From positions 1-64,000 of IMG/VR virus record IMGVR_UViG_3300046096_000928: a DNA stretch of 64,000 bases, one strand, 5' to 3'. Source of the DNA: a virus. Within the stretch, counting starts at the first letter, position 1, and every line of letters begins with the position of its first letter. The translations under genes were made by a program, and so were the position numbers. Shown in pieces: positions 1,810 through 59,272 of this stretch. The notes below the pieces were generated by a model. That model worked only from the letters and a program-made list of their open reading frames with translations. It ran no database searches and had not been told where the DNA came from.

Positions 1810-1926
1810 GAATATATCTCCTAGTTTATTTAAATGGTTTAGGATTCACTAGATGATATAAAGCAATTCATAATTTACGTTGTGGATTGCTTTTCTAGTC
1901 TTTACTTTCCTTTTTTTATTGTAACA
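1810..1926 (-). ncRNA. Structured antirepressor leader, copy 1, including extended -10 TGTTACAAT
   Basis: Stems CTAGA/TCTAG and AAAGCAAT/ATTGCTTT, plus CCTA/TAGG over the SD; homologous to four other copies. Confidence 0.65.
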
Positions 1927-1959
1927 TTTTTAAGCTATTTTTTAAGGTTTTACTTAATT

Positions 1960-2829
1960 TTAATTACCCGTAAACAAATCTTTTTGATTATTTTCTTCAT
2001 GCCATTTAGCTATTCTATTTTTGCCAACTTCGTAATATTCTTTATCCTTTTCAATACAAGTGTATTTGCGATTTAATTCTAAACAGGCTAGTGAAGTAGT
2101 AAAACTACCAGCGAAAGGATCAAGTATTAAATCACCCTCTTTTGTTGTTAATTCAATTAATTGTTTAAAGAGTTTGACTGGTTTTTGTGTAGGGTGTTGG
2201 AAGTGATAATGCTCTCTATTTACTGGCATAATACTTTTGAATAAACAGCCTCTCTGATGAATCTGATAAGTAGAAAAGGCTACGTCAAGCCCCTTCTTAC
2301 ACTGTCCCATTATTTTATGCTTTTCTTCTCTATTGATCTTTTTTCTTGTCCAAAATATAAAATCTTCATAAGATTTTATATTTTTTATCCCCGCTAGGAT
2401 TCGTTTATAGTCAAAAACGATCCCGTTGGGATTTATAGCTTCATCAAACTCTAATTTATCAATATAAATTCTATTCAGTTTACTTTTTTTTTTGCCAAAT
2501 AGACTAGCTAATTCATGTAACCTACCTACTGGATGACAAGGATTAGATAAATTCTTTTTATACCAAATCAACTCCTCCTTGAAAATAAAACCCAAATCAT
2601 CACATATTATATTCCATTTTGATAACGGCACACCACGACCAAAGAATAATAAAAAACCTGTATCTTTTAATACTCTAAAACATTCGCTAAACAATAATTG
2701 AGCATCGAAAGGACAGTCTAATTTGTGTTTGAGATAACCATAAGGTGGATCAGTAATAACGGCATCAACTGAATTGTCAGGAATAGTTTTTAGAATATCA
2801 AAACAGTCGGCATGAAAAATTTTATTCAT
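1960..2829 (-). CDS. N4/N6 DNA methyltransferase (beta class), intact
   Basis: DPPY, HPTQKP and DPFAGS motifs. Confidence 0.9.
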   Translation of the reverse strand: MNKIFHADCFDILKTIPDNSVDAVITDPPYGYLKHKLDCPFDAQLLFSECFRVLKDTGFLLFFGRGVPLSKWNIICDDLGFIFKEELIWYKKNLSNPCHPVGRLHELASLFGKKKSKLNRIYIDKLEFDEAINPNGIVFDYKRILAGIKNIKSYEDFIFWTRKKINREEKHKIMGQCKKGLDVAFSTYQIHQRGCLFKSIMPVNREHYHFQHPTQKPVKLFKQLIELTTKEGDLILDPFAGSFTTSLACLELNRKYTCIEKDKEYYEVGKNRIAKWHEENNQKDLFTGN

Positions 2830-2912
2830 AGTAAGAAAAGTAAATGTAGTTTAATTGTAAGCAAAAATAAGACAAAAATGTTAAAATAGAGAAAACGATA
2901 CAGTCAAAACAA

Positions 2913-3929
2913 ATGAAAATATTTAATGCTTTAGGCAGTGACGAGATTAAAGATCGCAGTATTTTTAATGGGAATAGTACCAATATAAATAATTTGAATA
3001 ATGTTAAATATTTATGGGGTATTCAATTATATAACCAAATGAGGGCGAACTTTTGGTTGCCACAAAAAGTAGATGTTGTGGGGGATATAAATTCTTATAA
3101 TGAGTTAAGCATTCAAGAACGGACAGCTTATGACGGAATTTTAAGTTACTTAATTTTTTTAGATTCAATTCAAACAGCAAACATCCCTTTTCTAGTTGGT
3201 AAAATCACCGCACCTGAGATAAGATTATGTTTACTTGAACAAGCGTCTCAAGAAGCTATGCACTCTGCTAGTTATCAATATTTAATCGAAACAATAATTC
3301 CCGTAGAGAAAAGAAATTATCTTTACAATTATTGGAGGAAGGATCAGGTTTTAGCAAAACGTTGTGAGGCGATCGCCAATTATTATCAAAATTTCATAAA
3401 TACTAATTCAGATAATGATTTTATTTTATCGTTAGTTGCTAATTACTTTTTAGAAGGGATTTATTTTTATAACGGATTTATGTTTTTCTATAACTTAGCG
3501 GTAAGAAGTTTAATGTGTAATACAGCGGACATGATTAAATTAATACACCGGGATGAGTTAAATCATGTGAGATTGTACCAAAAGATTTTAGAAGAAAGTT
3601 TACAGCAAAATAAAATAGATGAAGAATCGATTTACACTTTGTGTGAAAGTACGGTACAACAAGAGATAACATGGTCAGCTCATATTATAGGGAATGAAGT
3701 CTTAGGTATTACTGAAAATTCGAGTAAAAATTATACTCGTTACTTAGCTAATATGCGATTAAAAGCAATAGGATTAAATGCCATGTACGATACAGATTGC
3801 GAGAATCCTTATAAACATTTAGAGAATATTGCTGACGTTTCTAAAGAGGCGAGTTCCAAAACTAACTTTTTCGAGAGTAGTGTTACTTCTTATAACATGG
3901 CGACTAATGTGAGTGGTTGGGATTTTTAA
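2913..3929 (+). CDS. nrdB: Class I ribonucleotide reductase small subunit
   Basis: ANFWLP, QEAMH, LEGIYFYNGF, RDELNH diiron ligands; C-terminal NFFESSVTSY. Confidence 0.92.
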   Translation: MKIFNALGSDEIKDRSIFNGNSTNINNLNNVKYLWGIQLYNQMRANFWLPQKVDVVGDINSYNELSIQERTAYDGILSYLIFLDSIQTANIPFLVGKITAPEIRLCLLEQASQEAMHSASYQYLIETIIPVEKRNYLYNYWRKDQVLAKRCEAIANYYQNFINTNSDNDFILSLVANYFLEGIYFYNGFMFFYNLAVRSLMCNTADMIKLIHRDELNHVRLYQKILEESLQQNKIDEESIYTLCESTVQQEITWSAHIIGNEVLGITENSSKNYTRYLANMRLKAIGLNAMYDTDCENPYKHLENIADVSKEASSKTNFFESSVTSYNMATNVSGWDF

Positions 3930-4366
3930 CTTTTTATCTTTACTTTGGGGCGAAAGTATTGAGAACCTTTAGATACTTCCTCCGCTTTACTTAGAAAATC
4001 GGAGATAAAACATTCTTCTACCGACGAATAAATAGGAAAAGGATGATCCTCATCGTCGCTTCTAACAAATCCACTTTTCTTATCTTCATTCAAAAAGAGT
4101 ATTTCGTTTTTAGATGTTTTATCCACGTTATGATTTTCAGAAGTGATGAATAGACAATTCTCTTGAGGTTTTTCTTTATCAAAGTCATAAGGATATAGCG
4201 ATCCAATACATTCTGAAAAAAGAGATAAATTCTGGCAATGTATTTCTTCTATTTTATATGGGATAACTTTTTCAAAAAATTCTTTACTACAAGTATTAGG
4301 GTGACAATCGATATAAATATAAATAGGTTTTATTCTTATCAAATCACCTGATTTTAATAGTTTCAT
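3926..4366 (-). CDS. Hypothetical protein
   Basis: 146-aa ORF overlapping the nrdB stop convergently. Confidence 0.5.
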   Translation of the reverse strand: MKLLKSGDLIRIKPIYIYIDCHPNTCSKEFFEKVIPYKIEEIHCQNLSLFSECIGSLYPYDFDKEKPQENCLFITSENHNVDKTSKNEILFLNEDKKSGFVRSDDEDHPFPIYSSVEECFISDFLSKAEEVSKGSQYFRPKVKIKS

Positions 4367-4481
4367 TTTGTATTACTTATTTTATTTGTATTACTTTCAT
4401 CATACATGAATTTGATGTTAACGACTGAGATTTTAACATTTAACATTTTGTTAAGATAAAGATAGTGTATTACAGAATGTA

Positions 4482-4781
4482 ATGAATGGATTACCGCATT
4501 ATTTTTTAATTGGACTAATAATCTCTTATGTTTATTTGTTATTACTAGGAAGCCAAGTAATGGAATTAAATAAAGGTTTCATGGAAATAACAGGAGCTTA
4601 TCTCGGTTGGTTAACATCAGAGACAGCCAAAAGTAAAGAAATGGCATTTGTAATTGTTGTTTTGGTAGCAAGTCTTTTTATTGTAATGGTAATTCAGCCT
4701 GATAATTTACCTAGTATTGTTGGGCTTATTACTTTTATTTCAGTTGGTTGGTTCGGTTCATTAACAAATCGTATAAATTAA
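4482..4781 (+). CDS. Small multi-pass membrane protein (possible holin)
   Basis: 99 aa, 3-4 hydrophobic segments. Confidence 0.45.
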   Translation: MNGLPHYFLIGLIISYVYLLLLGSQVMELNKGFMEITGAYLGWLTSETAKSKEMAFVIVVLVASLFIVMVIQPDNLPSIVGLITFISVGWFGSLTNRIN

Positions 4782-4785
4782 AATT

Positions 4786-10096: not shown

Positions 10097-10149
10097 CTTT
10101 TTATCCTTACTCTTTATTTCAATTATACTACATACTAAATAAGCCTTAT

Positions 10150-10440
10150 AAAATTCTTTTAGGTACGATTAATCCTTTCCTTACTTCATTCGCCTTGTTT
10201 AGCTAAATAATCAGCAATACAAAGAATAATTAGTTATTTGTTTAATGGCTCTTTTTCTTAAACAGAAAAAAGAAAAAATAATTTTTTTTGCATAATTAAC
10301 TTGATCTTTATTTTTTTAATTATGAGTTTATTGATCTTAATTATGTATATCGAAAACCTGTTAACAGGTAACCTAATGACAGGAAACCTAATATCAGGCA
10401 ACCTGTTGATAGGAACTCGTCAATTGGCTTTTTTCTATGG
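10150..10440 (-). repeat. Dispersed element copy B (4 CCT-N6-AGG units), inverted
   Basis: Reverse complement matches copies A and C. Confidence 0.9.
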
Positions 10441-10654
10441 GAAAGTCATATCCTATAGATATATCTCTATGCGTTGTCAATTAGGTGAAGCAGGAAGGAA
10501 ACAGCAAGCCTATACAACATCAAAAAATGACTACTGTATAGGTTTGCGTAGGTTTTTCAGAGCGAAAACTATAAATAATTAAATGAGCATAGAGAATTTA
10601 TGATCAAAATGTACTTAAAAAGTTACAATCAAATTACAACTATTTTTATTTTCT

Positions 10655-11527
10655 ATGAATCAAGTTTTTCATGCCGACTGTTTTGATATTTTAAAAACTA
10701 TTTCTGACAATTCAGTAGATGCTGTTATTACTGATCCACCTTATGGTTATCTCAAACACAAATTAGACTGTCTTTTCGATGCGCAATTACTCTTTACTGA
10801 ATGTTTCAGAGTGTTAAAAGATACAGGTTTTTTATTATTCTTTGGTCGTGGTTTTGAGTTTGCTAAATGGAATGTAATATGTAGTGAATTAGGTTTTGTG
10901 TTTAAAGAAGAATTAATCTGGTATAAAAAGAGAGCGAGTAGCCCGTATTCAATAGTTGGTAGAATCCACGAATCTATAAGTTTGTTGGCAAAGAAAAATA
11001 GTAAATTAAATAAAGTTTATGTGGATAAAATAGAATTTGATGAGGCTATGAATCCTAAAATAATTAATCAAGATTATAAAAGAATATTATCTGACATCCA
11101 TAAAATAAAATCGTCATAAGATTTTATTTTATGGTCAAATGAATTAACTGAACATAAAAATAAACACAGTATAACTACAGGTGAAACTAAGAAAGATTAT
11201 GCTCGTAGTTATTCTACTTATAAAGCACATCAAAAAGGGGTTGGTTTAAGAAGTATAGTCCCGATGCAAACAGAGCATTATCACTTCCAACACCCTACAC
11301 AAAAACCCGTTAAACTCTTTAAGCAATTAATTGAATTAACCACAAAAGAAGATGATTTAGTAATTGATCCTTTCGCTGGAAGTGGTACAACGGCGATCGC
11401 CTGTTTAGAATTGAATCGCAATTATATCTGTATAGAAAAGGATCAGGAATATTTTGAAGTGATAGAAAATAGGATTACTAAATGGCATGAAGATAATAAA
11501 CAAAAAGACTTGTTTACGTGTAATTAA
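10655..11527 (+). pseudogene. DNA methyltransferase, paralog of 1960-2829, with a single in-frame TAA at 11117-11119
   Basis: The two track ORFs are in the same frame; the paralog reads IKSYEDF where this reads IKSS*DF. Confidence 0.88.
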
Positions 11528-11560: not shown

Positions 11561-11680
11561 TGTTACAATAAACAAAGGTATGATGAAACGAGAAAAGCAA
11601 CTCACAATCTTACCAATTATGAATTGCCTATATATCATCTCGTTCCCCTAAAGGAATTTAAACAAGTAGGAGATAAACTT
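11561..11680 (+). ncRNA. Structured antirepressor leader, copy 2
   Basis: AACGAGA/TCTCGTT, GCAA/TTGC, CCTA/TAGG. Confidence 0.65.
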
Positions 11681-12433
11681 ATGGTAACAGATTTCAATTT
11701 AAGTTTGCAAGGTACGGTTTCACCATTCGATAGATTAAGACGTATTGATGAAAATGGTAAAGAATATTGGTCAGCTCGTGAGTTAATGCCGTTATTAGGT
11801 TATTCAAAATGGCAAAATTTCTTTTCTGCAATAGAGAATGCTATTGAGAATCTTGAAACCGTTACTGAGAATGTCGATAACCACTTTTTACTTCTAGAAG
11901 TAAAAAGTCTAGGACGACCATCTGTCGATTATAAATTAACAAGATTAGCTAGTTATCATGTAGCTATGGCTTGTGATTCACGAGGTAACGAACAAGTAAA
12001 AATGGCAAAACATTATTTTGTTGTCAAAACTCGTCAAGCTGAACTTCAACAAGCACCCGTACAACCTAAATTACCAAGTCGTGTAGTAGCACTTGAAACA
12101 GCAGAATGTATCAGTGGTATTTATAAACATATTGGTGAGGATAATCCACGATTAGCACAATTTTTAATTGACCATGCTATCAGTGATTTAATGCCAAGTA
12201 GTAATAATCTTTTAGTAGGGGAAGAATTAAAAGGAGTTGTTGAGATTGCAGAAGAAATGGGTTTGCCAGTCAACATTAAAAATCGTAGTCAACTCGGTAA
12301 ATTTGTTAAAAGTTCATGCGGACATTTAGCAATTCAAGAAAAACGATTAGTTAATGGACGTATGCAACCAGTCGCTTGTTATCCATGCTACAGTGAAGAA
12401 GTTAAAGAAGCTATACAACAATTCTTTGCTTAA
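11681..12433 (+). CDS. Bro/DinD-like antirepressor; probable start is ATG 11681 after AGGAG
   Basis: EYWSARELMPLLGYSKWQNF...DYKLTR; C-terminal domain shared with 49560-50285. Confidence 0.78.
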   Translation: MVTDFNLSLQGTVSPFDRLRRIDENGKEYWSARELMPLLGYSKWQNFFSAIENAIENLETVTENVDNHFLLLEVKSLGRPSVDYKLTRLASYHVAMACDSRGNEQVKMAKHYFVVKTRQAELQQAPVQPKLPSRVVALETAECISGIYKHIGEDNPRLAQFLIDHAISDLMPSSNNLLVGEELKGVVEIAEEMGLPVNIKNRSQLGKFVKSSCGHLAIQEKRLVNGRMQPVACYPCYSEEVKEAIQQFFA

Positions 12434-18339: not shown

Positions 18340-18613
18340 ACAAAAAATAAAAGACTTGATAGATGAGTATTTATTTTCTGAAACGGGGATATCCCATGAC
18401 GAATACGAAACTATATTAAATACCGAGATTAATACATCGAATTTCAATAGAATACAAACGAAACTTTATAAATGTGAAAAAACTCTTAAAGAAATATGCA
18501 AGTTATTAGATACCCTAGATTTTTCTTACTCAATAGACCAGGCTCATTATGAGAAATTGAGAGAAATAACAGCAATAAGAGATTACTCTAAATGTCATAA
18601 ATCTCATTCATAA
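18320..18613 (+). CDS. Hypothetical protein (start MNKTELE)
   Basis: SD GGAG and overlap with the helicase stop. Confidence 0.5.
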   Translation: MNKTELEQKIKDLIDEYLFSETGISHDEYETILNTEINTSNFNRIQTKLYKCEKTLKEICKLLDTLDFSYSIDQAHYEKLREITAIRDYSKCHKSHS

Positions 18614-18899
18614 AACTGGTATCAACTGGACAAGCATTAACATTAATAACTGGAAACGGGGTAAAATATATCTCATCCATAAAACTGGTATCAACTGGAC
18701 AAGCATTAACATTAATAACTGGAAACGGGGTAAAATATATCTCATCCATAAAACTGGTATCAACTGGACAAGCATTAACATTAATAACTGGAAACGGGGT
18801 AAAATATATCTCATCCATAAAACTGGTATCAACTGGACAAGCATTGATCCCAGTTGAATTATTAATTTGAGCTAAAACTCCTATAAAAAAATTAGGCAT
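18588..18899 (-). CDS. Small tail-operon protein built from a 23-aa repeat
   Basis: Abuts 18900-19814; repeat NACPVDTSFMDEIYFTPFPVINV. Confidence 0.5.
   Translation of the reverse strand: MPNFFIGVLAQINNSTGINACPVDTSFMDEIYFTPFPVINVNACPVDTSFMDEIYFTPFPVINVNACPVDTSFMDEIYFTPFPVINVNACPVDTSFMNEIYDI
18600..18846. repeat. Near-perfect 69-bp tandem repeat, ~3.5 copies
   Basis: aaaactggtatc recurs at 18612, 18681, 18750, 18819. Confidence 0.95.
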
Positions 18900-19815: not shown

Positions 19816-22800
19816 TTAAGTTAATTTTCCTACTATTGTCCATAAATTACTACCAAGATGTATTACTTGAGCTGTATCATATTTTGCTACTAAAGTACTT
19901 CCTCCAGAGTCTAATGTACCGATCGCCACAAAAGTAATTATATTAGTACCAGCGTTTTGAACAGTACAAGTAAACCCAGTAGTTAAACCATTGGGTAATG
20001 TAATTGTGATTGCATTACTTGCCCGGATAAAAGAATTATAATCTGATTCAGCTAACGTTGTATTAGTTGTGATTACTCTTATCCCTATGGTAGTAATTGG
20101 TTTGTTACTTAAATCATTATAGCTTATCTGTAAATTGCCCGAACCTAAAAGACTATTATTATTAATGCTTTTTAGATTGGTCTGATTAACCAAAGTTGCT
20201 TGTTTGGCATTAAGAGCATTTTGTAAATCCGTCTGATTACTTAACGTACCAGTCAACAAACCCCAAGCGATTCCAGAACTGGTCAAAGAAACACTTGCAG
20301 TATTACCTCCTAAGTTAGTGATTGTAGCGTTACTAAAAATGATTGTAGCAATATTAGGATAATTACTAACACCATCATTTAAAGTAATATCACTAGATGG
20401 TAAATTATAAAATCCTTTAGTTCCAAGTGCATTACTACCATAATATTGATTAGTGCTAACTGTACCACTTATGTTAGCTGCCAAATCTACGATCCCATCA
20501 TTATTAGTATCATAAATCGACTTATTCATATCACCAATACCGCTACCAATAGGGAAGCCATAAAACCCTTTAACACCACTAGCATTAGTACCGTAATATT
20601 GATTAATACTTGGTGAACCAGCGATATTAGTAGCAATATCGGCAGAGTTTACAACACCATCATTGTTACTGTCATAAGTTGATACCTCCATATCACCCGT
20701 AGCGATAGGCAAATCGTAAAATCCTTTAATATTACTTGCATTAGTACCATAGTAATAATTAGCTAAAGTTGATCCATTTATTGATTCAGCACTATCTACA
20801 ATCCCGTTATTGGTAGTGTCATAAACCGAAGTAAGCATATCTCCGATCCCATTACCAATAGGGAAGTTATAAAAGCCTTTAATATTACTTGCATTAGTTC
20901 CGTAATATTGAGTGGACGAAGGTGAACCAACAATATTGGTAGCAAGATCAGCTAATTCAGCAATATCAACTTTGCCGTTATTGGTAGTATCATAAGTCGA
21001 TTTAAGCATATCGCCACCTAATGGCAAAGCATAAAATCCTTTACTATTACTTGCATTAGTACCATAGTAATAATTAGCTAAAGTTGATCCATTTATTGAT
21101 TCAGCACTATCTACAATCCCATTATTGGTAGTATCATAAACAGATTTAACCATATCCCCACCGGATGGAGGTAAATCGTAAAACCCTTTAATGTTACTTG
21201 CATTAGTACCATAATATTGATTTATAGATGTACTTCCGCTTACTGCTGTAGAAAAATCTACAATTCCATTATTGTTAGTATCGTAAGTTGATTTGAGCAT
21301 ATCGCCCGTACCAATACCAGTAGGGAAAGTATAAAAACCTTTAAATCCGTTACTATCTGTACCATAATATTTATTGGCTGGAATAATACCTGCTAAATCT
21401 TGGGCTAAATTTACAACACCATCGTTATTAGTATCATAAATCGATTTAAGCATGTCTCCCGTCACCGAGATATTAATAGTAGCAATACCGCTACCACTAT
21501 TGGTTATACTTGCACCGTTAAAATTTAGTTGACTTACATCATTTATAGTTGTAATACCATCAGTGACTGAATCTAATTGACCACCAGTCGAATCAATGGT
21601 TAAAGTATTGAGAAAATCATTATAGGTCAAATTAACATTATTACCAGCAATCAATAAAGAAGCTACTCTATCATCAACACCCTCATTAAAATTAGGGATT
21701 GTAGTAGGATCAATTATTAAATTCCCCGCACCTAACAACGTAGTATTGTTAATACTTTTGATATTAGTTTGATTGACTAGCAAAGGTTGTAACGCATCTA
21801 AAGCTGTTTGTAACCCACTAATTGTTACGATCGCCTGTGTACCTGTGTGATTAGTCCTATCTAAATAAAATTCAGGTAATTCACCACCTAATGTGTCCGC
21901 ATCAATATTACCAGTAATGCCTGTTATCGGTGTAGGGTTTGTAATAGTAGCTTCTCCCGCATAACCACGACCTACTATAGAACTTACCCTATACACCTTG
22001 ACATCAAAAGGCAACGTTATACCGTCTGTTATTTGATCAACATTAAAATAAGTAATATTTTGTGCATTGGTAGAAAAAGTACGCACCACGCTATTACTTG
22101 TATTTAAAATATCAATTTCATAAGTAATTATTTCAGTACCATTTTGAAAAGGAGAGTTATTTATATAAGGATAATCCCATGTAATTGTTATATTGTCAGC
22201 ATCATCTATCTGGCTTTCGATATTAGTAGGGGCTAAAGGAATATAATTATTGCCTACTGTGTTGACTGTATTAGTAGGGGTTGCATTCAAATCTTGCCAA
22301 GGGGCTATAACTGGTTGGTAAGTAATTGATTGACCTACATTGAGAGTATTGGCATAAAAAGAATAATAAGCCCCATCACCTTTTAATAAAAAGAATTTAT
22401 CGCCAACGTTGTTATTGCTATTAAAATTTTGCGTATTGAAAATACTTCTTTGCAGGTAATTTATAGTATATCTATCATTCCCTAAAGGTAAAACATCTCT
22501 AAATTGTATTAATTCACCTTCCCATACACCATTATTTTGACGAGCTATTAATGCCAAATTAGAACCCGTATTAAATTGACTTGCACTAATTGACGATAAA
22601 CTGCCACTAAATAATTGTACATTCAAAGTATTAACAGTATCTAAACCAGTTGCTGATGGTAATGCGGTTTCACATTCACCAATCGTAGAAGTAGCTGTGT
22701 GATTGACGGAGGCGATATAACTATTACCTCCGTCAAAACTGATATTTACAGTAGTCGGTGCGTCCGCACAGATATAAAGAGTATTCGGTGGATTATTAGG

Positions 22801-24171
22801 ATTGATAACAGGAATATCAAGAAAATAAACATCAGGAATGCCATTGTCTAAAGGATCAATTAAAGAGGGGAATGAATTACTGTTAGGTGGGTTTGTTGAG
22901 GTGTAAAGGAATGCCCCAAATCCGATATAGCGTCTTGCTGATACTTCAATCGTATAGTCTGGATTTAAAGTTATTTTTTCTATCTGTACAATTTCCCCGT
23001 TTGGTAATTCTACTATTCCTAAAAGTTCTAAATAAGGATAGTACGGAGCTGGCAACTTAAATGTATAACTGAAACGCTGTCTAGTAGTTACTAATTTTAA
23101 TATTTTTCTAGCTTGTTGCCTTGCTTCATAAGGATTTGTAGAAATTTGAGTTTCTATTCTAAAATCATTTTCTTGAGTATATTCTTCAAAATGTTCTACA
23201 ATCTCATCAACATCATATTTTTGATTGTTATTATAAAATTTTAGACTAGCTTTATTTGGTAATTGGCTTTTGGCTGTTCTAGTTACTTCAAATATTCTAT
23301 TTTCATTTACAGCCAAGTAATGATTAGTAGGAAAAATATTTGGCGTAAGAATACCCCGATCAAAAGATTTGAACATTATTACTCCTTCCCCAGATTCCAC
23401 TGCGGTAAAAAGGTAAAACTGCATCAAATCTTCTAATACTTTCCTTGATGATTCTCCATTCTGACTGACTAGCAACCCCTCATTTAAAACATATTTACCA
23501 GCTATATCAGTTACATCTATACGATCAGAAGGCACTCCTGCACTTTCACATATATCACGAACTACTAAAGAAACATCGGGATTAGCCCCAAACTTTTCGC
23601 CTAATAAAACAGCTCCTATTTGTGTAGGTATTTGATTACCATATACTTCTAAAGGAACATCTTTAAAACCTATATAACAAACGCCTTTGTACGCAATTTC
23701 TGCCTCGTCCCCCGTTTCAATGGTTTGCATCGCTGACCATGGCTGAGTTTGCGTACCATCAAAAAAAGTACAATATTCTTGAAAAAAAGAATGATCCGTT
23801 GTAAATTCTTGCCCATTCACAATTACCCTTTCTAGGCTTACATCACCCTCACAAAATAAAACAGCCCATGTCCCATAAACTTTCTCAGTTTCATTTTGTT
23901 GCCCCCCTTTTCCACCTCCTCCGCCACCTTTACCACCTTGAGATGTAGTTTCAGTCTCAATGCGATACATTTTCTCAATCGTATCAGGCCAAAATTTGTT
24001 GCCTTCTAATCTGATCTTGCCATATATTTTGGGTATGGGTGAATCGTACTCTGATTTTGGAACTCTTAAACTTGTTTCTTGTTTTTGTTTTTTTTGTGGT
24101 GTTGTAAATAAAGGAGATATTGCACTGACGGCTAAAGATATTCCTAAACCAATTATTGGATCAAATCCCAT
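19816..24171 (-). CDS. Tail tip/host-specificity protein (RcGTA g15-like) with fibre repeats
   Basis: SEYDSPIPKIYGKIRL, AYKGVCYIGF, GELIQFRD...YLQR; C-terminal 7 x ~50-aa repeats. Confidence 0.85.
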   Translation of the reverse strand: MGFDPIIGLGISLAVSAISPLFTTPQKKQKQETSLRVPKSEYDSPIPKIYGKIRLEGNKFWPDTIEKMYRIETETTSQGGKGGGGGGKGGQQNETEKVYGTWAVLFCEGDVSLERVIVNGQEFTTDHSFFQEYCTFFDGTQTQPWSAMQTIETGDEAEIAYKGVCYIGFKDVPLEVYGNQIPTQIGAVLLGEKFGANPDVSLVVRDICESAGVPSDRIDVTDIAGKYVLNEGLLVSQNGESSRKVLEDLMQFYLFTAVESGEGVIMFKSFDRGILTPNIFPTNHYLAVNENRIFEVTRTAKSQLPNKASLKFYNNNQKYDVDEIVEHFEEYTQENDFRIETQISTNPYEARQQARKILKLVTTRQRFSYTFKLPAPYYPYLELLGIVELPNGEIVQIEKITLNPDYTIEVSARRYIGFGAFLYTSTNPPNSNSFPSLIDPLDNGIPDVYFLDIPVINPNNPPNTLYICADAPTTVNISFDGGNSYIASVNHTATSTIGECETALPSATGLDTVNTLNVQLFSGSLSSISASQFNTGSNLALIARQNNGVWEGELIQFRDVLPLGNDRYTINYLQRSIFNTQNFNSNNNVGDKFFLLKGDGAYYSFYANTLNVGQSITYQPVIAPWQDLNATPTNTVNTVGNNYIPLAPTNIESQIDDADNITITWDYPYINNSPFQNGTEIITYEIDILNTSNSVVRTFSTNAQNITYFNVDQITDGITLPFDVKVYRVSSIVGRGYAGEATITNPTPITGITGNIDADTLGGELPEFYLDRTNHTGTQAIVTISGLQTALDALQPLLVNQTNIKSINNTTLLGAGNLIIDPTTIPNFNEGVDDRVASLLIAGNNVNLTYNDFLNTLTIDSTGGQLDSVTDGITTINDVSQLNFNGASITNSGSGIATINISVTGDMLKSIYDTNNDGVVNLAQDLAGIIPANKYYGTDSNGFKGFYTFPTGIGTGDMLKSTYDTNNNGIVDFSTAVSGSTSINQYYGTNASNIKGFYDLPPSGGDMVKSVYDTTNNGIVDSAESINGSTLANYYYGTNASNSKGFYALPLGGDMLKSTYDTTNNGKVDIAELADLATNIVGSPSSTQYYGTNASNIKGFYNFPIGNGIGDMLTSVYDTTNNGIVDSAESINGSTLANYYYGTNASNIKGFYDLPIATGDMEVSTYDSNNDGVVNSADIATNIAGSPSINQYYGTNASGVKGFYGFPIGSGIGDMNKSIYDTNNDGIVDLAANISGTVSTNQYYGSNALGTKGFYNLPSSDITLNDGVSNYPNIATIIFSNATITNLGGNTASVSLTSSGIAWGLLTGTLSNQTDLQNALNAKQATLVNQTNLKSINNNSLLGSGNLQISYNDLSNKPITTIGIRVITTNTTLAESDYNSFIRASNAITITLPNGLTTGFTCTVQNAGTNIITFVAIGTLDSGGSTLVAKYDTAQVIHLGSNLWTIVGKLT

Positions 24172-33981: not shown

Positions 33982-34063
33982 TTTTAATACTAATTGTAGT
34001 AAGGCATATTACAATTCTATTTTACATCTATTTTCCATAGGCTTTTTTCTATGCTTATTGTAT

Positions 34064-34398
34064 TTACGATAGAGAAAAGCCAATTGACGAGTTCCTATCA
34101 ACAGGTTACCTGATATTAGGTTTCCTGTTATTAGGTTACCTGTTAACAGGTTTTCGATATACATAATTAAGATCAATAAACTCATAATTAAAAAAATAAA
34201 GATCAAGTTAATTATGCAAAAAATTTATTTTTTCTTTTTTTCTGTTTAAGAAAAGAAGCCATTGAAAAATAACTAATTATTCTCTGTATTGCTGATTATT
34301 TAGCTAAATAAGGCTAATGAGGTAAGTAAAGGATTAATCATACTTAAAGAAACTTTAAAAGAGTAAAATAATGAAATAAAGCAATGATCAAATAAAGA
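34064..34398 (+). repeat. Dispersed element copy C (4 CCT-N6-AGG units)
   Basis: Direct match to copy A. Confidence 0.9.
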
Positions 34399-34790: not shown

Positions 34791-35513
34791 TTAGGCTTTG
34801 GCTAGTGCACCGTATTTTTTATCTAAATAAACTGGCATTTTAAGGGGGACATATATTGTCTCCAAACATTGTGCAAAATATCCTAATTCACAGAAGTCAT
34901 AGGCTTTTATAACCCGTGTCCCACGATGATTGTCAAGATGATAGATAGCCGTACTACTTTCAACTGCCCATTCTTTACTACTGCGATACGAACTCCAATG
35001 AATACCAACCGACCCATCGAGTAAATCAAATATATCTATTGGATAACCTAGCTTTTCTACTCGCAACATCAAATAGTTTGCTTTTTCTGCGATGCACCAA
35101 GTATTAGGTTGCTTAACTAGATTTTTCTCTAAATCCATAATGCGATCTGAGTAAACGGTAATTGCTTTTTTAGGTTGCTCAACTGAATAACTACCAGTTT
35201 GTCTAATACTTGGTAAGATTTCCTCAAATACCCATTTTTGAAATTGTTTAGCTGTTTCTAAACGAGATTTAAAGATTAGTTGATAAATACCAGCCTCTTT
35301 AGTAATTATCAATACCTTCTCAATTCTTGGCTTGTTTTCCCCATATCTGATGGTGGGCATTTGATGTAATGTCAAATAATCTGGATCGATTAAGTCTTTT
35401 ATCGCTGTTTTGGGAGTAGCATAACCTAATGCTTTTGCTACATCGATCGCCACTGGATTACCATCTACAAAACGAATATCTTGACTATCAAACTGAAATC
35501 GTGTTAAATTCAT
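34791..35513 (-). CDS. Bro-N antirepressor
   Basis: DVAKALGY, EAGIYQLIFKSR, FQKWVFEEILPSIRQTGSY. Confidence 0.88.
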   Translation of the reverse strand: MNLTRFQFDSQDIRFVDGNPVAIDVAKALGYATPKTAIKDLIDPDYLTLHQMPTIRYGENKPRIEKVLIITKEAGIYQLIFKSRLETAKQFQKWVFEEILPSIRQTGSYSVEQPKKAITVYSDRIMDLEKNLVKQPNTWCIAEKANYLMLRVEKLGYPIDIFDLLDGSVGIHWSSYRSSKEWAVESSTAIYHLDNHRGTRVIKAYDFCELGYFAQCLETIYVPLKMPVYLDKKYGALAKA

Positions 35514-35625
35514 ATTAACTCCTAGTTGCTTAACTACTTTTAGGGGTTACGGAATGATATACAGCAATTCATAATTAACAGTTATGGGTTGCTTTTCCGT
35601 TTCTATAACTATTTATATATAAGTC
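35514..35625 (-). ncRNA. Structured antirepressor leader, copy 3
   Basis: ACGGAA/TTCCGT, AGCAA/TTGCT, CATAA/TTATG, CCTA/TAGG. Confidence 0.65.
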
Positions 35626-35662
35626 TTTGAAGATTTTAAATCTACTTAATTAGTCTGTAATT

Positions 35663-36950
35663 CTAACTGTTCAATTTTATTTTGGTTGCTGATATTCTTT
35701 GATTAATTATGTTTAAATATTCTTCTTCTTTTTCGATTAGAACATAATTAAAACCTGTTTCTATTGCACTTACTGCCGTTGTACCACTGCCTCCAAAAGG
35801 ATCAAGTACAATTCCATTAGGGGGAGTAATTAACTCGATGAAATATGCCATTAAATGCCGTGATTTAACTGTCGGATGATCATTATTGACTAATCCTTTA
35901 CAATTCCTATCAGTTGTGGATGCTTTGGCTTTGTAGTATATGCTATTGACTGTATCTGTATCAAAAGGTAAGTTTTTAAAATATCTCGCCGCCGTTCCTT
36001 TATCCTCAAAATAAACACCGCTTTTATACGGATTACTTTTAAATTTTACTGAATTATCCTTCGTGTATGTATCGTAATTATAGTCACTTGCTCTACTGAC
36101 AGATTCCCCACTTTGATCGCCAATAACATTAACAGGACAATCTTTAGCGTGATTATTTTCTTGGCAGTTAATACCACATGATAAAATTAAATTAGCTGGA
36201 TAAAGACCGATGTTAGGATTGTGACCATCTTCTGATCCTGTTTCTTTTCCTAGCCCACTGTGATAAATATTAGTCTTCTCTTTTTTTTGAAAAACCACAA
36301 GGCACTCTTTTATTAGTACCAATCCTACCTGCATCAATATTTAATCCGCCCGTACCGTGTTTAAGAATATTTCTAACAATACTAGATTCTGAACATTTTT
36401 TCTGCCCCAACCACCAACCTTCGATCGCAGGTTTCAACGCAGGAGTTTTCCAACCATCCCATCGCTTTGCTAATTCACTTGATGATTTTGTGATTTTAGG
36501 GTTATCTTGCCATGAACCACCAAGTGCATTCGTACCATCCTTACATCCCCTTGCGGATGTAAGGATGCCTATAACCTCTCTTTCTTCTCCTAACATCCGA
36601 TCAATCTGCTTACTCACATCTTGCCCTTTTTGAAATCCGCCGCCATTTGCATGGTGTACAATGTCAATAATTCTAAAACCAGCTAATTCTAAAGCCATAC
36701 CAGTCCAGTGAGAGGTTCTAGGAATACTCCATACTAAACCAATTGCACCAGGCTTCATGGTACGCATGGCTTCGTTCATTACCTCTGATAACCAATTAAT
36801 CCAATTAAGCATACCACCCTTGTTATCATCCCATTTCATGGACATAAAGCTGATCGAAGAAGGTGGATCAGTAATTAAAGAATCAAAATAATTATCGGGG
36901 AATGTTTTTAATACTTTTAAACAATCACCATGCAAAACTTGGTTAATCAT
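35663..36950 (-). pseudogene. DNA methyltransferase split by a frameshift in an A8 run (36281-36288)
   Basis: DPP motif (DPPS) in the first ORF; HPTVK and DPFGGSG in the second; deleting one A fuses them. Confidence 0.82.
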
Positions 36951-40743: not shown

Positions 40744-41469
40744 TTATTTAATAATTGTTAAGGTTGTAGTTTCTGGTAGTTTCACGTTAGGATATGCAAA
40801 ACGCCAAGCATCATGAGGATAAAGTAGTTGATAAGCATATCTTGCGGACGGTACTTTTTTGATTTCTAAATTCATCTTTTCAGAAACCGCTTTTAATCTC
40901 CGCCAACTAAAGTTTTTCTCACTTATGTTATTAAATTTGGCTATACGGATAATTGAGGAATAATCAAAGAGTTCATCAATTACTTCCGCTTGACGTTCTA
41001 AGTCTTTTTCTTGATCCTCAATGATAGATTGTTTAAGCTCATTCTCTAAAGCTAATCGTTCTTTTTCTTCTTCTTGTGCTATTAAAGCAAGTAAAGCTTC
41101 TTTGTAGGTTTTAGGCATTAGTGAAGAAACCTCTTTTAATGCTTTTTCTGCTTCGATAAAATATTTACGAGTATTTTTCCCTATCGCTGAGCGGGATAAC
41201 ATACAGAGTTCTTTCAAAGCATCACAAGTTAAATTAATTACTTCAGAACCACGACCACCAGTGCTTTTCAACATTTTGTTAAAAAGATAATCGGTTTCCT
41301 TTTCTAAGTAATTATCTATAGCTCTTTTTGCACTTGCTTTTGTAGCATATCCTGCTACTTCCCATGCCTCATCAAGATCAACAGGATATTTATTCCCCTC
41401 TTTCTCTTTCCTCAACCATTCATCTACAATATTTGAGTAGGACTTGGAATTTAAACTTGAATCTGCCAT
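40744..41469 (-). CDS. AntA-like antirepressor
   Basis: YPVDLDEAWEVAGY, GGR, RKYFIEAEK, PKTYKEALLAL. Confidence 0.78.
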   Translation of the reverse strand: MADSSLNSKSYSNIVDEWLRKEKEGNKYPVDLDEAWEVAGYATKASAKRAIDNYLEKETDYLFNKMLKSTGGRGSEVINLTCDALKELCMLSRSAIGKNTRKYFIEAEKALKEVSSLMPKTYKEALLALIAQEEEKERLALENELKQSIIEDQEKDLERQAEVIDELFDYSSIIRIAKFNNISEKNFSWRRLKAVSEKMNLEIKKVPSARYAYQLLYPHDAWRFAYPNVKLPETTTLTIIK

Positions 41470-41587
41470 AATAGATATATCTCCTAAGTTACTTAATTAT
41501 GTTTAGGTGGTACAGACGTTATTAAAAGCGGATTCTTAATCAAAGCTAAGAGTTCGCTTGTCTGTTTTTCCTTTGTTTATTGTAACA
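41470..41587 (-). ncRNA. Structured antirepressor leader, copy 4 (most diverged)
   Basis: ACAGAC/GTCTGT, AAGCG/CGCTT, TCTTA/TAAGA, CCTAA/TTAGG; TGTTACAAT upstream. Confidence 0.62.
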
Positions 41588-41640: not shown

Positions 41641-41746
41641 TTGACATTTTTAAAGAAGCGGATTATAACGAAGGGTATGTTTCCGAATTTATTTAGTGTA
41701 TGTTTTGGGAAGCTCTGACTATACATCGGGCTTCCCCTTTTTTTTT
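41641..41746 (+). ncRNA. Candidate ~70-nt sRNA with its own promoter and intrinsic terminator
   Basis: TTGACA-17-TATAAC at 41641-41669; GGGAAGCTC...GGGCTTCCC followed by a T run. Confidence 0.55.
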
Positions 41747-44259: not shown

Positions 44260-44309
44260 AACTAAATTTGTATTACTTTTTGTAGTCTAACATATCGACA
44301 AAATCGTAC

Positions 44310-44338
44310 TTGCTAGAATAAATCAAATAAGATATAGT
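44310..44338 (+). promoter_or_regulatory. Conserved-spacer promoter, variant copy
   Basis: TTGCTA-GAATAAATCAAATAAGA-TATAGT. Confidence 0.65.
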
Positions 44339-44366
44339 CAAAAATGAGACTTAAAGAGTAAAAAAT

Positions 44367-44609: not shown

Positions 44610-44617
44610 AATGTACC

Positions 44618-44646
44618 TTGACAAAATAAATCAAATAAGAGACAAT
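44618..44646 (+). promoter_or_regulatory. Conserved-spacer promoter
   Basis: TTGACA-AAATAAATCAAATAAGA-GACAAT. Confidence 0.75.
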
Positions 44647-44688
44647 GACAATATAAACAAAAAAACAAGTACACAGAGGTTAAAAATT

Positions 44689-45597: not shown

Positions 45598-45660
45598 GAT
45601 TTATTTTGTCAAAAAAATATTTTGAAATACCTTGACAAAATAAATCAAATAAGAGATAAT
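45598..45660 (+). promoter_or_regulatory. Conserved-spacer promoter with an upstream inverted copy
   Basis: GATTTATTTTGTCAA (45598-45612) is the reverse complement of TTGACAAAATAAATC (45632-45646); -10 GATAAT. Confidence 0.78.
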
Positions 45661-45692
45661 AGTAATATACAAACAAAACAAAAGAAAAGATT

Positions 45693-50285: not shown

Positions 50286-50348
50286 TTACATATTAAAATT
50301 TCTGATAATACAATCAACTATTTATTAGAAATTTTAATTAAAAGTATA

Positions 50349-50377
50349 TTGACAAAATAAATCAAATAAGAGATAAT
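50349..50377 (+). promoter_or_regulatory. Conserved-spacer promoter
   Basis: TTGACA-AAATAAATCAAATAAGA-GATAAT. Confidence 0.78.
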
Positions 50378-50408
50378 AGTATTATATAAACAAAACAAGA
50401 ATAGAATC

Positions 50409-50901: not shown

Positions 50902-51039
50902 TTCCAACTAAAATTAATTAATTAAATAACTAAGCTATTTTGGAAAGATAAACTTAGTTATTTAATTAATAATGAATAAGGCTAAAACAAGGCTATTAAT
51001 AGCCAAATAAATATCGAAAAAACTAATTTCAGAAATAAC

Positions 51040-51068
51040 TTGACAAAATAAATCAAATAAGAGACAGT
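51040..51068 (+). promoter_or_regulatory. Conserved-spacer promoter
   Basis: TTGACA-AAATAAATCAAATAAGA-GACAGT. Confidence 0.72.
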
Positions 51069-51111
51069 AGTAATATAAGAACAAAAAACAAACACAGCGA
51101 GACTAAATTAA

Positions 51112-52403: not shown

Positions 52404-52580
52404 CTTATTTTAATTACAACTATAAACAATCATACTACATACAAAGAAAAATTAACTAGGGATCAATATTTAATTGGATTTACCTTCTTTATTTTCTTTA
52501 TGAATAAATCATTGTTCCCAACTAGAAAAACTTTAATCCGTCCCATAATCATCAACAGAGAAAATAATTGTCCATCTCCT

Positions 52581-52775
52581 CAACGGCTTCTTTTCTTTAA
52601 AAAAAAAGAAAAATCATTTTTACATAATTAACTTGATCTTTGTTTCTTTGATCAATAAGTGGATTTATTATTATTATGTGTATCAAAAACCTGTTATCAC
52701 GAATCCTAATAACACGATTTCTGTTATCACGAATCCTAATGATAGGAACTCGTCATCAGGATTATTTTGCTATGA
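52581..52775 (-). repeat. Dispersed element copy D, diverged
   Basis: cataattaacttgatcttt and gataggaactcgtca shared with copy B; four 15-bp units. Confidence 0.75.
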
Positions 52776-54800: not shown

Positions 54801-54847
54801 TTATTTAGATTATAAAAAGAATAAGTTCATTTTATATGTTAACAAAA

Positions 54848-55084: not shown

Positions 55085-55090
55085 ATTAAT

Positions 55091-56601: not shown

Positions 56602-56662
56602 ATTTGTTTTATACTTGTAATAGTTATATATTACATTAAAATGAGAATAAAAAATAAAAATA

Positions 56663-57123
56663 ATGACAATTTCATATCAAGGGTTACTGACCGAATTAAA
56701 AAGTATAAGCAAGGGGTTAAAAGGAGTAACTGGGATTCAATACAACGCACTGTTTACCTTTAAAGAAGGTATGGGTAATATTGTTATTGATGAAACCACA
56801 GGCAACTATAATTTAGAGACTGAAATGATGAGAACAGTAAAAGCTAAATTGATAAAAAGAAAAGACGGCACAGTAGAGAGTGAAGGAGGATTAAATTACT
56901 CAAGGGTATATTGTGAAGGTTGGTTAGTTACGCCCGTTGAATATAACGGACGGATACCTAATGTAGTTGATTGTAGTTTTATTCAAAATAACTTATCTTA
57001 TGAAGGTAAATTTTATTTCACGGACGCTATGACAACACCTGTTACTGAATCAATGGATTTGGCGATTGCCATTGGTCAAGCTATACAAGGTTATTTTGAA
57101 TTGAAAGGAGATAACGGATTATA
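56663..57123 (+). CDS. Putative head-closure/neck protein
   Basis: DETTGN...CEGWLVTP; coupled to the gp10-like gene. Confidence 0.5.
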
Positions 57124-57498
57124 ATGAAATTTACTTTTGATGAAAAGAAATTCTTAAAAGAGGCTGAGAGAATAGCTGTCAAAGGATTTGGTAAAGTAGC
57201 GGATGTAATGCAAGAACAAATAACTGAAGAAAAAAGAGAATACCCTAACCTTACGGTGCGGAGGTATGGAGAGGGTAAAACTGGACGTATTGCTACAAGC
57301 CCTAGAGACGTGGTAGATAGTGCTGATTTAAGAGATAGTTTTATGAACGCTAGTAGAATAGAAGGGAATACTATTATTTTTAATGCTACATGGGATGCGG
57401 ATCATGCTAGTTTAGTTTATTTAGGGACTTCTAAAATTCCTAGCTATACGTGGGTTGATAATGTAGTACAAACAATTAATTGGCAAACTATTATTTGA
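57124..57498 (+). CDS. HK97 gp10-like tail completion protein
   Basis: SPRDVVDSADLRDS...HASLVYLGT. Confidence 0.65.
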   Translation: MKFTFDEKKFLKEAERIAVKGFGKVADVMQEQITEEKREYPNLTVRRYGEGKTGRIATSPRDVVDSADLRDSFMNASRIEGNTIIFNATWDADHASLVYLGTSKIPSYTWVDNVVQTINWQTII

Positions 57499-57979
57499 TC
57501 GTAATTAGATTGATTTCTTCTAATAAATTTTCTTGCTGTTTTAACATTTCTACTAGACTTTGATCGTCAGGGTGATTCCATCCTAAGAGATGTAAGAAGC
57601 CATGAGAAGCTAACCAAGTTAACTCAATCTTTAAAGCGTGTTGTTGAGTTATAGCTTGTCTCTTAGCTGTTTCTACTGAAATGATTATGTCTCCCAAATA
57701 AATAGGTTCATCTAAATCATCAATCAATATTTCATTTTCTAAGGAGGCAAAACTTAAAACATCGGTTGTTTTATCTATGTTACGAAATTGATTATTTAAT
57801 GCTTTTATTTCTTCATCATTAGTTAATCTTAGAGTTAGTTCATAATGATCATTTTGGGGAGTATCTGGACTTAATAAATTTAACCATTGTTGAAACCAAT
57901 CTTGCCAAATGTCTGACAAAATTGGTTTATCTTGGCTATTGGAATATAAATCTTCAAAGAAAAGAGTGATAGTAGCCAT
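57491..57979 (-). CDS. ybeY: rRNA maturation endoribonuclease
   Basis: LNNQFRNIDKTTDVLSF, LGDIIIS, HGFLHLLGWNH. Confidence 0.95.
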   Translation of the reverse strand: MATITLFFEDLYSNSQDKPILSDIWQDWFQQWLNLLSPDTPQNDHYELTLRLTNDEEIKALNNQFRNIDKTTDVLSFASLENEILIDDLDEPIYLGDIIISVETAKRQAITQQHALKIELTWLASHGFLHLLGWNHPDDQSLVEMLKQQENLLEEINLITIK

Positions 57980-57983
57980 AGGT

Positions 57984-58154
57984 TTAACGTGTTAAGTAAG
58001 ACATTGCAATTAAAAAAGTAAATAATCCTAAAGTAGTTAAGAAAAAATGCCATAAAGAAATTCCTTTTTTAGCAACCATATTACGCATCGCTGATTTAAC
58101 AAAACTATCTTTTATCTCCTTATTGGCGATCGCCTTTGTTTCTTCTTCATTCAT
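57984..58154 (-). CDS. DUF3285-family small membrane protein
   Basis: Own translation SFVKSAMRNMVAKKGISLWHFFLTTLGL...YLTR; the usual neighbour of cyanobacterial ybeY. Confidence 0.8.
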   Translation of the reverse strand: MNEEETKAIANKEIKDSFVKSAMRNMVAKKGISLWHFFLTTLGLFTFLIAMSYLTR

Positions 58155-58160
58155 ATTTTA

Positions 58161-58394
58161 TCAGTAAAAATTTATTTGTTTTTTTTCATAATAATCTAAT
58201 TTTGTCTTTAAGATAACTAATTCTTTTTCTAAATCGGTTATTTTTTCATTTTGTTGGTCAATTCTTTTGTCTAATTGCTTTTCTACTTTATTAAGTCTAT
58301 TCTCACTTATCATACCAAATAATAGACTTAGTAAAGTATAGCCACCTGTTATTGTAAATAAGACTTGCTGATAATGTTCTAATAAAAAAATCAT
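58161..58394 (-). CDS. TM plus coiled-coil protein (holin-like)
   Basis: One TM segment, then heptad repeats. Confidence 0.45.
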   Translation of the reverse strand: MIFLLEHYQQVLFTITGGYTLLSLLFGMISENRLNKVEKQLDKRIDQQNEKITDLEKELVILKTKLDYYEKKQINFY

Positions 58395-58441
58395 CTTTTT
58401 TCTTCTCAGTCTATACTTTAATTGTATTAAAAGTATATTAA

Positions 58442-58678
58442 TTAAGATTTTATCCCACGCTTTTTAGCTTCTTCGGCATATTTTGAATATTCCATTAATT
58501 CCATAGCTTTTCCCCCAAAAACTAATACTTGCTCATAGGGTACATAACGATCAATGCCATACATTGCATCTACACCCTCTACAGATTCTTTTTCGATGTA
58601 CTCTATCACAGCTAAAAGTTCATCATCTTTTAACTCCACAACTTCATAATCATTTATTAATACGACTGGAGGTTTCAT
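58442..58678 (-). CDS. Hypothetical protein
   Basis: 78-aa ORF. Confidence 0.5.
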   Translation of the reverse strand: MKPPVVLINDYEVVELKDDELLAVIEYIEKESVEGVDAMYGIDRYVPYEQVLVFGGKAMELMEYSKYAEEAKKRGIKS

Positions 58679-58728
58679 TTTTTCTTACTCTAAACTATAA
58701 TTTAATCATACTTCATTCGCATTACAAT

Positions 58729-59120
58729 ATAAATCAAATTATTCACGCTGATTGTTTTGATATTCTTAAAGATTTACCTGATAATTCTATCGATGCAATC
58801 GTTACTGATCCGCCGTATTTCAAGGTAAAAAAGAACAATGGGATAATCCTGGACATTCCCAACGGTATCATTTTATAAAGGTAAGCATCCTTGTGAAAAG
58901 CTCTTAGAATTAATAAAACATATAGTAAAAGCATCAACTACAGAGAATCAAGTAATATTAGATTGCGATCGCTGGTAATTTCACAACAGCGATCGCCTGT
59001 TTAGAATTAAATAGAAAATATATCTGTATTGAGAAGGATAAAGATTATTTTGAGATTGGCAAAGAGAGGATTGCCCGTTGGCATGAGAATAAACAAACTG
59101 ACTTGTTTGCGGGTAATTAA
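58729..59120 (+). pseudogene. Internally deleted DNA methyltransferase
   Basis: HADCFDILK...DPPY, HPCEK, TAIACLELNR...WHENKQTDLFAGN*. Confidence 0.82.
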
Positions 59121-59153
59121 TCTTAAGTAAATCTGTTATTTATGACTTAAAAA

Positions 59154-59272
59154 TGTTACAATAAATAAAGGAAGTGAATACTAGAAAAGCAACCCATAAA
59201 TTGCGTTATGAATTGCTTATTATCATCTAGCATCCCCTAAACCATTTAACCTAAATAGGAGATATATTTATT
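59154..59272 (+). ncRNA. Structured antirepressor leader, copy 5
   Basis: CTAGA/TCTAG, AAGCAA/TTGCTT, CATAA/TTATG, CCTA/TAGG. Confidence 0.65.

Follow-up and report, generated by a model that had tools for sequence, protein, structure and literature searches.

Antisense control of an antirepressor is textbook knowledge for phage P22, where it operates at a single locus in the setting of enteric temperate phages. The P22 sar RNA (Rfam RF00262) is a 68-69 nucleotide (nt) RNA from the immI region of this Salmonella phage, transcribed backward over the ribosome-binding site (RBS) and start of the antirepressor gene. Close to its 5' end lies a complement of the Shine-Dalgarno sequence (SD), or anti-SD, and the RNA also has a terminal hairpin; its pairing with the target represses translation (PMC12197685, PMC13397905, PMC2629481). 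In the P22 region as printed, the complement of the ant start codon comes first and is followed by CUCC (PMC13397905). The c4 RNA of phages P1 and P7 (~77 nt) blocks ant expression around the RBS (PMC12197685). In T4-type phages, PeSL cassettes are repeated units of promoter, stem-loop, SD and start codon that precede unrelated accessory genes and mark the borders of gene replacements (PMC2839356, PMC4122927), the stem-loop lying upstream of the promoter and being the terminator of the preceding gene (PMC4122927). Here, a repeated element in the virus record IMGVR_UViG_3300046096_000928 was compared with these systems. The stretch analysed (the window) is the first 64 kb of this 92,553-bp record, which has a G+C content of 30.6%, and it contains five cassettes of ~200 bp, one upstream of each of five different genes of the Rha/Bro/Ant/T5orf172 type (the cargo genes). 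The explanation that is favoured, with slightly better than even confidence, is that the cassette specifies a sar-like cis-antisense RNA from one of two convergent promoters and has been shuffled among cargo genes.

The initial annotation of the window had described five structured RNA leaders of ~110 nt at 1810-1926(-), 11561-11680(+), 35514-35625(-), 41470-41587(-) and 59154-59272(+), here cassettes 1 to 5. All five were recovered at these positions by nhmmer (E 1e-20 to 1.5e-27) and with covariance model R1 (61-120 bits), and no sixth copy was found in the 92,553-bp genome. The location therefore stands but the extent does not, as the conserved unit is longer, reaching from the final codons of an N6_N4 DNA methylase gene into codons 2-4 of the cargo gene. 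Along the cassette, the order is sense -10, hairpin, SD and start codon. The sense extended -10, TGTTACAAT, occurs four times in the window, solely at cassettes 1 (1918-1926(-), the predicted promoter of the cargo mRNA), 2 (11561-11569(+)), 4 (41579-41587(-)) and 5 (59154-59162(+)), as had been reported. The stem variants listed in that annotation are also present in the sequence, namely CTAGA/TCTAG, AACGAGA/TCTCGTT, ACGGAA/TTCCGT and ACAGAC/GTCTGT for the outer stem, GCAA/TTGC and AAGCG/CGCTT for the middle stem, and CATAA/TTATG and TCTTAG/TTAAGA for the inner stem, together with a CCTA...TAGG pairing that overlaps AGGAG and a 5' AAAGG in four copies.

The helices form much better on the strand antisense to the cargo genes, and the sense strand assigned to them originally is probably wrong. 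The five leader spans folded in the sense orientation gave -16 to -19.6 kcal/mol, with z-scores of -0.46 to -2.30 against shuffled sequences, whereas the reverse complements of the identical spans gave -26.5 to -30.2 kcal/mol and z-scores of -2.33 to -5.00. For structural alignments, ten distinct copies were available, five from the window and five from relatives, and the hairpin was more stable in the antisense orientation by 4.9-12.9 kcal/mol in all ten. On the antisense strand it is one continuous stem of 12-15 bp, whereas the sense version consists of three short segments parted by C.A mismatches, each of which is a U.G pair on the other strand; the three-segment hairpin of the initial annotation corresponds to this single stem. 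RNAalifold analysis of the same ten spans gave -16.32 kcal/mol antisense and -5.45 kcal/mol sense, which does not support the sense leader.

The covariation that had been noted was confirmed, with both pairing and double-sided changes exceeding shuffled and slid controls. In the ten-copy alignment (A5), 93.8% of cells in the antisense main hairpin are paired and eight pairs have changed on both sides; none of 500 shuffles reached the observed covariation score, and slid controls paired at 35-54%. For the full predicted RNA, comprising a 5' stem-loop (SL1), an outer helix and the main stem, the ten-copy covariance model pairs 90.1% of cells and contains 10 doubly changed pairs, and again 0 of 500 shuffles reached the observed value while slid controls gave at most 3. 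Covariation by itself is silent on which strand carries the structure. When the hairpin was mirrored onto the sense strand, 78% of cells were paired, and G.U cells numbered 36 antisense but only 3 sense. Such an excess of G.U is what a transcribed strand would be expected to show, and it favours the antisense strand. This asymmetry is present separately in the type-A, L053-type and type-B hairpins, the last of which has almost no stem sequence in common with type A and keeps its architecture and the side of the bulge. An alternative sense pairing proposed by RNAalifold, between the bulge UAUAUCAUCU and GGAGAUAUA, was rejected; it shows no covariation, is weakened by the change of TATC to AACA in L053, and is absent in cassette 4.

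A potential promoter for such an RNA overlies the beginning of each cargo gene. An antisense extended -10 (TG-N-hexamer) was found over the start of all five cassette genes and of 14 of 124 other open reading frames (ORFs), in a comparison designed after the motif had been noticed. In cassettes 4 and 5 and in the related copies L053, L100 and L120-L122, the motif is TGNCATAAT, the reverse of ATT-ATG-NCA. In cassettes 1 and 2, where the ATT is missing, an extra GTA codon yields TGTTACCAT, one base off the sense promoter; this sequence lies at 1801-1809(+) in cassette 1, as the reverse complement of the first three cargo codons, ATG-GTA-ACA, and at 11681-11689(-) in cassette 2, over the same three codons and with a TTGCAA -35 located 18 nt upstream. 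Cassette 3 carries TGTTAAATT over codons 2-4 (35502-35510(+)), with a TTGACT -35 also 18 nt upstream. In cassette 4, a promoter scan independently called TTGGAA-17-CATAAT with the TG (41444-41472(+)), which overlaps the start codon and was the sole full promoter called. In cassette 5 the motif is TGCCATAAT (59270-59278(-)), the reverse complement of ATT-ATG-GCA; codon 2 is GCA here and TCA in the L100 ortholog, and the antisense TG is found in both.

The nucleotide 7 nt past the antisense -10 is a purine in all ten copies, and SL1 starts there. The predicted antisense RNA is 77-89 nt long and consists of SL1, which holds a paired anti-SD, then the long bulged hairpin and a U-rich tail. Both structural parts appear in the minimum-energy fold of nine of the ten copies; the L122 fold lacks SL1, although a hand-drawn structure can include this pairing. 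The pairing of SL1 is kept across different sequences (AUCUCCUA/UAGGGGAU, UCCUA/UAGGA, GCCUCUA/UAGA.GGU and GCC.CUAG/UUAG.GGU). Within the window, the predicted RNAs are 50-78% identical and four of the five share the 5' sequence AUCUCCUA.

The predicted RNA of cassette 1 (86 nt, 1816-1901(+); R2 score 91.1 bits; fold -26.3 kcal/mol) includes SL1 with the anti-SD, a bulged hairpin at 1848-1899 and a U-rich tail, and is complementary to the 5' untranslated region (UTR) of the Rha gene; the span 1804-1917(+) has a z-score of -5.0. For cassette 2 it is 89 nt (11586-11674(-); hairpin 11588-11643; 79.8 bits; -27.8 kcal/mol; z -3.66), and for cassette 3 it is 86 nt (35517-35602(+); hairpin 35549-35600; 79.0 bits; -26.1 kcal/mol; z -4.48). 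The cassette 4 RNA, predicted at 89 nt (41479-41567(+); 67.7 bits; -26.5 kcal/mol; z -4.67), has the type-B hairpin (41512-41565) followed by UUUUU, and that of cassette 5 is predicted at 86 nt (59178-59263(-); hairpin 59180-59231; 93.4 bits; -25.2 kcal/mol; z -2.33). Terminator-like sites were flagged on the antisense strand at cassettes 1 (1860-1893(+)) and 4 (41526-41559(+)). A small antisense ORF of 25 amino acids (aa) at 59156-59233 was discarded, as it is not conserved and the same frame stops after two codons in cassette 1.

On the favoured explanation, the element would be a compact portable cassette in which two extended -10 promoters, ~115 bp apart, face each other. The one on the sense strand would direct the mRNA of the antirepressor-type gene, and the promoter on the opposite strand, written across the start codon and codons 2-4, would direct the cis-antisense RNA. 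The 5' end of this RNA would lie at the complement of the SD, where SL1 would pair the anti-SD CUCCUA with UAGGGG or UAGGA, and its 3' end would be formed by the long bulged hairpin and the U-rich tail. We infer that the RNA is synthesised, that it starts and stops at these points and that it represses translation. Pairing with the entire 5' UTR would block ribosome binding and/or trigger decay, convergent transcription could add interference, and the mode of control would be that exerted on ant by the sar RNA in P22. Control of cargo gene translation, as put forward in the initial annotation, is plausible, but a structured sense-strand leader as its means is not supported, the z-scores being poorer than those of the opposite strand.

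Relatives of the element were collected with pattern scans of IMG/VR and then with covariance-model searches. The element was found in only a few related IMG/VR contigs, namely a record of 67 kb, another of 49.6 kb, and two fragments of 15.2 and 20.6 kb that overlap each other; together these supply the five distinct copies L053, L100, L120, L121 and L122. The type-B hairpin is located upstream of an Ant-like gene in the window (cassette 4) and upstream of a Rha gene, the ortholog of cargo 1, in L122, with the break in the SL1 loop. In the related 67-kb phage, a truncated cassette (L097 4895-5010) downstream of an intact methylase gene retains the promoter and the 5' arm of the hairpin, beyond which the sequence changes to an unrelated hairpin that has a T-run, followed by a different gene. 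Metagenome contigs were found in which other cargo is joined to the hairpins of cassettes 3 (at 35536) and 4 (at 41507), and in which 35576-35626 is swapped for 111 other letters. The cassette thus shares with PeSLs the property of being repeated before unrelated ORFs at the borders of replacements or deletions (L122, L097 and the contig joints). On sequence grounds it is best read as having been copied, originally together with the methylase gene, and recombined onto different cargo genes. Scans further afield gave five loci in metagenome contigs with a promoter-anchored pattern and 25 in species-genome contigs with a hairpin pattern, none of them genuine, and an upstream-anchored pattern found only the known relatives in viral contigs; L160 was a chance match to this pattern. 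A blastn search of GenBank phages with the leader returned only chance fragments, and model R1 found nothing in Aphanizomenon phage CL131 or Planktothrix phage PaV-LD.

Several observations weigh against a dedicated antisense RNA. The G.U asymmetry falls to roughly 10 to 2 when counted by alignment column, and the approximately ten distinct copies come from one narrow phage group and represent few independent compensatory events. The antisense promoter count was post hoc, as noted, and cassette 5 and L053 have a weak antisense -35 or none. With 6-7 U in 10 positions, the U-rich tails are modest, and only two of the five window copies pass the terminator rule. A role for the sense strand is also possible, given that most of the helix cells still pair there and that an SD-sequestering hairpin is present. 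Finally, the leader of ORF095L in PaV-LD (L131 2520-2626, record 70003-70153), which precedes a homolog of the C-terminal half of cargo 1, has a comparable layout, with TGGTGTATAAT, a long hairpin (GAGAAAAGC...GCTTTTCTC), an SD hairpin and an antisense TGCTAAACT over codons 3-5, and both of its strands are strongly structured (z -5.1 sense and -6.6 antisense), giving no strand signal. This leader occurs once in the PaV-LD genome and gave no convincing MAFFT alignment with the cassettes; it is retained only as a possible distant analogue in a cultured Planktothrix phage.

An alternative that accommodates part of this evidence is a cis-regulatory leader on the sense strand, in which the long hairpin and the CCUA/UAGG hairpin of the mRNA sequester the SD until opened by a protein, a ligand, temperature or a 5' AAAGG switch, with no antisense RNA. 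The minimum-energy sense folds of cassettes 3, 4 and 5 show the helices, those of cassettes 4 and 5 pair AGG with CCU, and a CCU or CCAC stretch is found upstream of the SD in all ten copies with changes that preserve pairing; the PaV-LD leader is also strongly structured in sense. However, the sense folds of the cassettes are not better than shuffles, their internal loops are all C.A mismatches that pair on the opposite strand, RNAalifold gives them only a third of the antisense energy, and the conserved codons 2-4 of unrelated genes are left unexplained. The AAAGG is missing from cassette 3, L120 and L121, and the AAAGG/CCT switch proposed in the initial annotation is rejected as a conserved feature. 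The combination that would characterise a riboswitch or thermometer, sense structure above chance and pairing that is best in sense, was not observed, and a sense leader is considered unlikely; it is possible that the weaker sense helices act instead as the target structure of an antisense RNA. The hairpin could otherwise be a mere terminator or insulator on the antisense strand that stops stray backward transcription into the promoter and methylase gene, with the -10 motifs coincidental and no dedicated RNA. This would account for a stable antisense stem with a U-rich tail and for the two copies flagged as terminator-like. Cyanobacteria are not known to possess Rho, and in a phage with a cyanobacterial signature this would make intrinsic terminators the main stop signals. 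It would not account for the covarying SL1 over the SD, nor for the enrichment of antisense extended -10 motifs and the two alternative solutions by which these are formed, and cassettes 1-4 have no upstream gene on the antisense strand to supply transcripts; a terminator alone is accordingly regarded as quite improbable.

Conservation of the element purely as DNA, as a PeSL-like mobile cassette or a hairpin recombination site with no RNA structure and a history of recent duplication or recombination, appears very unlikely. The cargo swaps (L122 versus cassette 4, L097, and the contig joints), which break within the SL1 loop and within the hairpin loop, would be expected of such an element, the similarity between cassettes 1 and 2 is about that between the methylase remnants flanking them (79%, repeat I1), and the PeSLs of T4-type phages provide a precedent (PMC4122927). 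However, recent copying does not explain why the type-B hairpin keeps its architecture and bulge side with almost none of the type-A stem sequence, or why double-sided changes exceed the controls, and duplex DNA offers no cause for a G.U strand asymmetry. With five copies in one genome, a single operator-binding protein would not tolerate such different stems, and no suitable recombinase was identified. The sar-like antisense RNA cassette is retained as the preferred explanation.

The cargo genes belong to antirepressor families, as had been claimed, and blastp found no similarity between any of the five products. Cargo 1 (1030-1809(-), 259 aa) is a Rha-type regulator (Pfam PF09669, E 2.5e-15; PHROG Rha/anti-repressor). 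Cargo 2 (11681-12433(+), 250 aa) and cargo 3 (34791-35513(-), 240 aa) are Bro-N proteins (PF02498), the former matching the PHROG anti-repressor Ant and the latter, with a Pfam E-value of 3.6e-18, PHROG 130 and 6287. Cargo 4 (40744-41469(-), 241 aa) is Ant-like (PHROG 63, anti-repressor Ant, E 2.4e-17) with a weak Pfam AntA match, and cargo 5 (59273-60013(+), 246 aa) contains a T5orf172 domain (PF10544). Four of the five were assigned to anti-repressor/Rha by PHROGs. The C-terminal half of cargo 3 (34791-35100) is BstA-like, residues 103-234 matching PHROG 6287, the BstA abortive-infection replication inhibitor, with an E-value of 2.6e-8, and some cargo genes may take part in phage-phage conflict rather than being classical antirepressors. 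Cargo 5 shares its N- and C-terminal parts with the L100 ortholog (832-1503), and the T5orf172 (GIY-YIG-like) middle is found only in the window copy, where on this comparison it has the look of an inserted domain.

Cassettes 1, 2, 3 and 5 each follow a DNA methylase gene, whole or broken, and the only intact one upstream of a cassette is at 1960-2829(-) (289 aa; PF01555, E 1.3e-36). At cassettes 2, 3 and 5 the gene is cut short, split or in fragments, and ~17 nt of its 3' end are left at cassette 4 (repeat D20). The broken copies consist of an N- plus a C-terminal remnant (10655-11527), two overlapping frames (35663-36950) and scattered fragments (58728-59117), and the cassettes and cargo genes beside all three are intact. 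A ~300-bp repeat containing CCTGTTAACAGG palindromes spaced ~15 bp apart and an A/T-rich tract is present in four copies, at 516-832, 10145-10471 (inverted), 34036-34369 and 52545-52767 (inverted). Three of these adjoin modules of methylase, cassette and cargo: two are downstream of a cargo gene (cargo 1 and cargo 3), and one is upstream of the methylase remnant of cassette 2. The repeats could be operator or origin-like arrays that mark the limits of larger duplicated modules.

The 92.5-kb record is ~80% complete according to CheckV. Among cultured phages, Aphanizomenon phage vB_AphaS-CL131 and Planktothrix phage PaV-LD are its closest relatives, a relationship seen only at the protein level, and a megablast search with 13 kb found no match among GenBank phages and PLSDB plasmids. 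The DNA of this genome was found only in freshwater metagenomes, all 14 listed sequencing runs being freshwater DNA metagenomes. The cyanobacterial HIP1 palindrome, GCGATCGC, occurs at 21 sites genome-wide compared with 0.14 expected from base composition (for example at 3369, 6160, 11393, 58965 and 58989), and 13 of the 21 are GGCGATCGCC. Because of these protein relatives, the freshwater source and the excess of HIP1, it is likely that the virus is a cyanophage with a cyanobacterial host.

A second, different repeated regulatory unit in this genome is a near-consensus promoter consisting of TTGACA, then AAATAAATCAAATAAGA, then GATAAT, in which the spacer is conserved too; it is found upstream of short ORFs at 44309-44343, 44617-44651, 45631-45665, 50348-50382 and 51039-51073. 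Tandem 69-nt repeats are located at 18597-18845 (three overlapping 111-nt copies, 98% identical), inside an ORF at 18588-18899, and diverged repeats of ~150 and 309 nt are found at 20399-21499, inside the 1451-aa ORF at 19816-24171. Divergent from cassette 4, the region 41641-41746(+) carries TTGACA-17-TATAAC, then ~70 nt in which GTATGTTT occurs twice, and next a GC-rich hairpin and T9; it could specify a small RNA in its own right or serve the convergent operon as a bidirectional terminator. Complementarity between this candidate and the cassette 4 loop extends over just 7 nt and is probably due to chance.

A broader proposal, tentative and well short of an even chance, is that the five cassettes are partly orthogonal "antisense locks" that double as a recombination handle for capturing and exchanging cargo genes in these cyanophages. 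Each cassette would make its own small RNA silencing one Ant/Bro/Rha-type gene. The common anti-SD sequence, shared by four of the five, and the common promoter type would allow one signal to release the set together, while the diverged hairpins would preserve specificity in cis. A combined regulatory and mobility module of this kind was not found described in the literature searched. If the favoured explanation holds, one genome would deploy a portable unit carrying both promoters, the RBS and the first codons five times, on Bro/Rha/Ant/T5orf172 genes that are unrelated to one another and whose functions in large phages are little understood. Further examples might then be sought in annotation as a backward extended -10 across a start codon together with a hairpin that is better on the opposite strand.

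Comparison with PeSL cassettes reveals a shuffled composite regulatory unit placed before unrelated genes in both cases. However, the layout differs, as the cassette hairpin is located downstream of the -10, within the 5' UTR, and forms better on the opposite strand; an antisense promoter is not described for PeSLs. The c4 RNA is encoded upstream of its target, reads in the same direction and works by short complementarities in its loops, whereas the candidate RNA here is encoded in cis and is fully complementary. A cmscan search of the whole window at Rfam gathering scores found only a tRNA, and neither sar nor C4 was matched in the cassette 4 and 5 regions even at E<=10, consistent with the absence from Rfam that had been anticipated; the P1/P7 C4 family covariance model does not match the cassettes. 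The closest parallel is with sar of P22, as the predicted cassette RNA would also run antisense across the RBS and start, carry an anti-SD in its 5' part and finish in a hairpin. The differences are that RF00262 has no match to the cassette 4 and 5 regions at E<=10, and that there are five copies per genome here, with five unrelated cargo genes, a fixed sense promoter and a methylase remnant. The P22 partners arc and mnt were not seen, although no search was aimed at them, and the present virus is an apparent cyanophage in which no tyrosine integrase was found in the ~80% complete 92.5-kb record. If the favoured explanation is correct, the solution used by P22 arose without sequence similarity in phages that bear a cyanobacterial signature; antisense control of antirepressors is already known in kind, and it is the cassette family that appears to be new.

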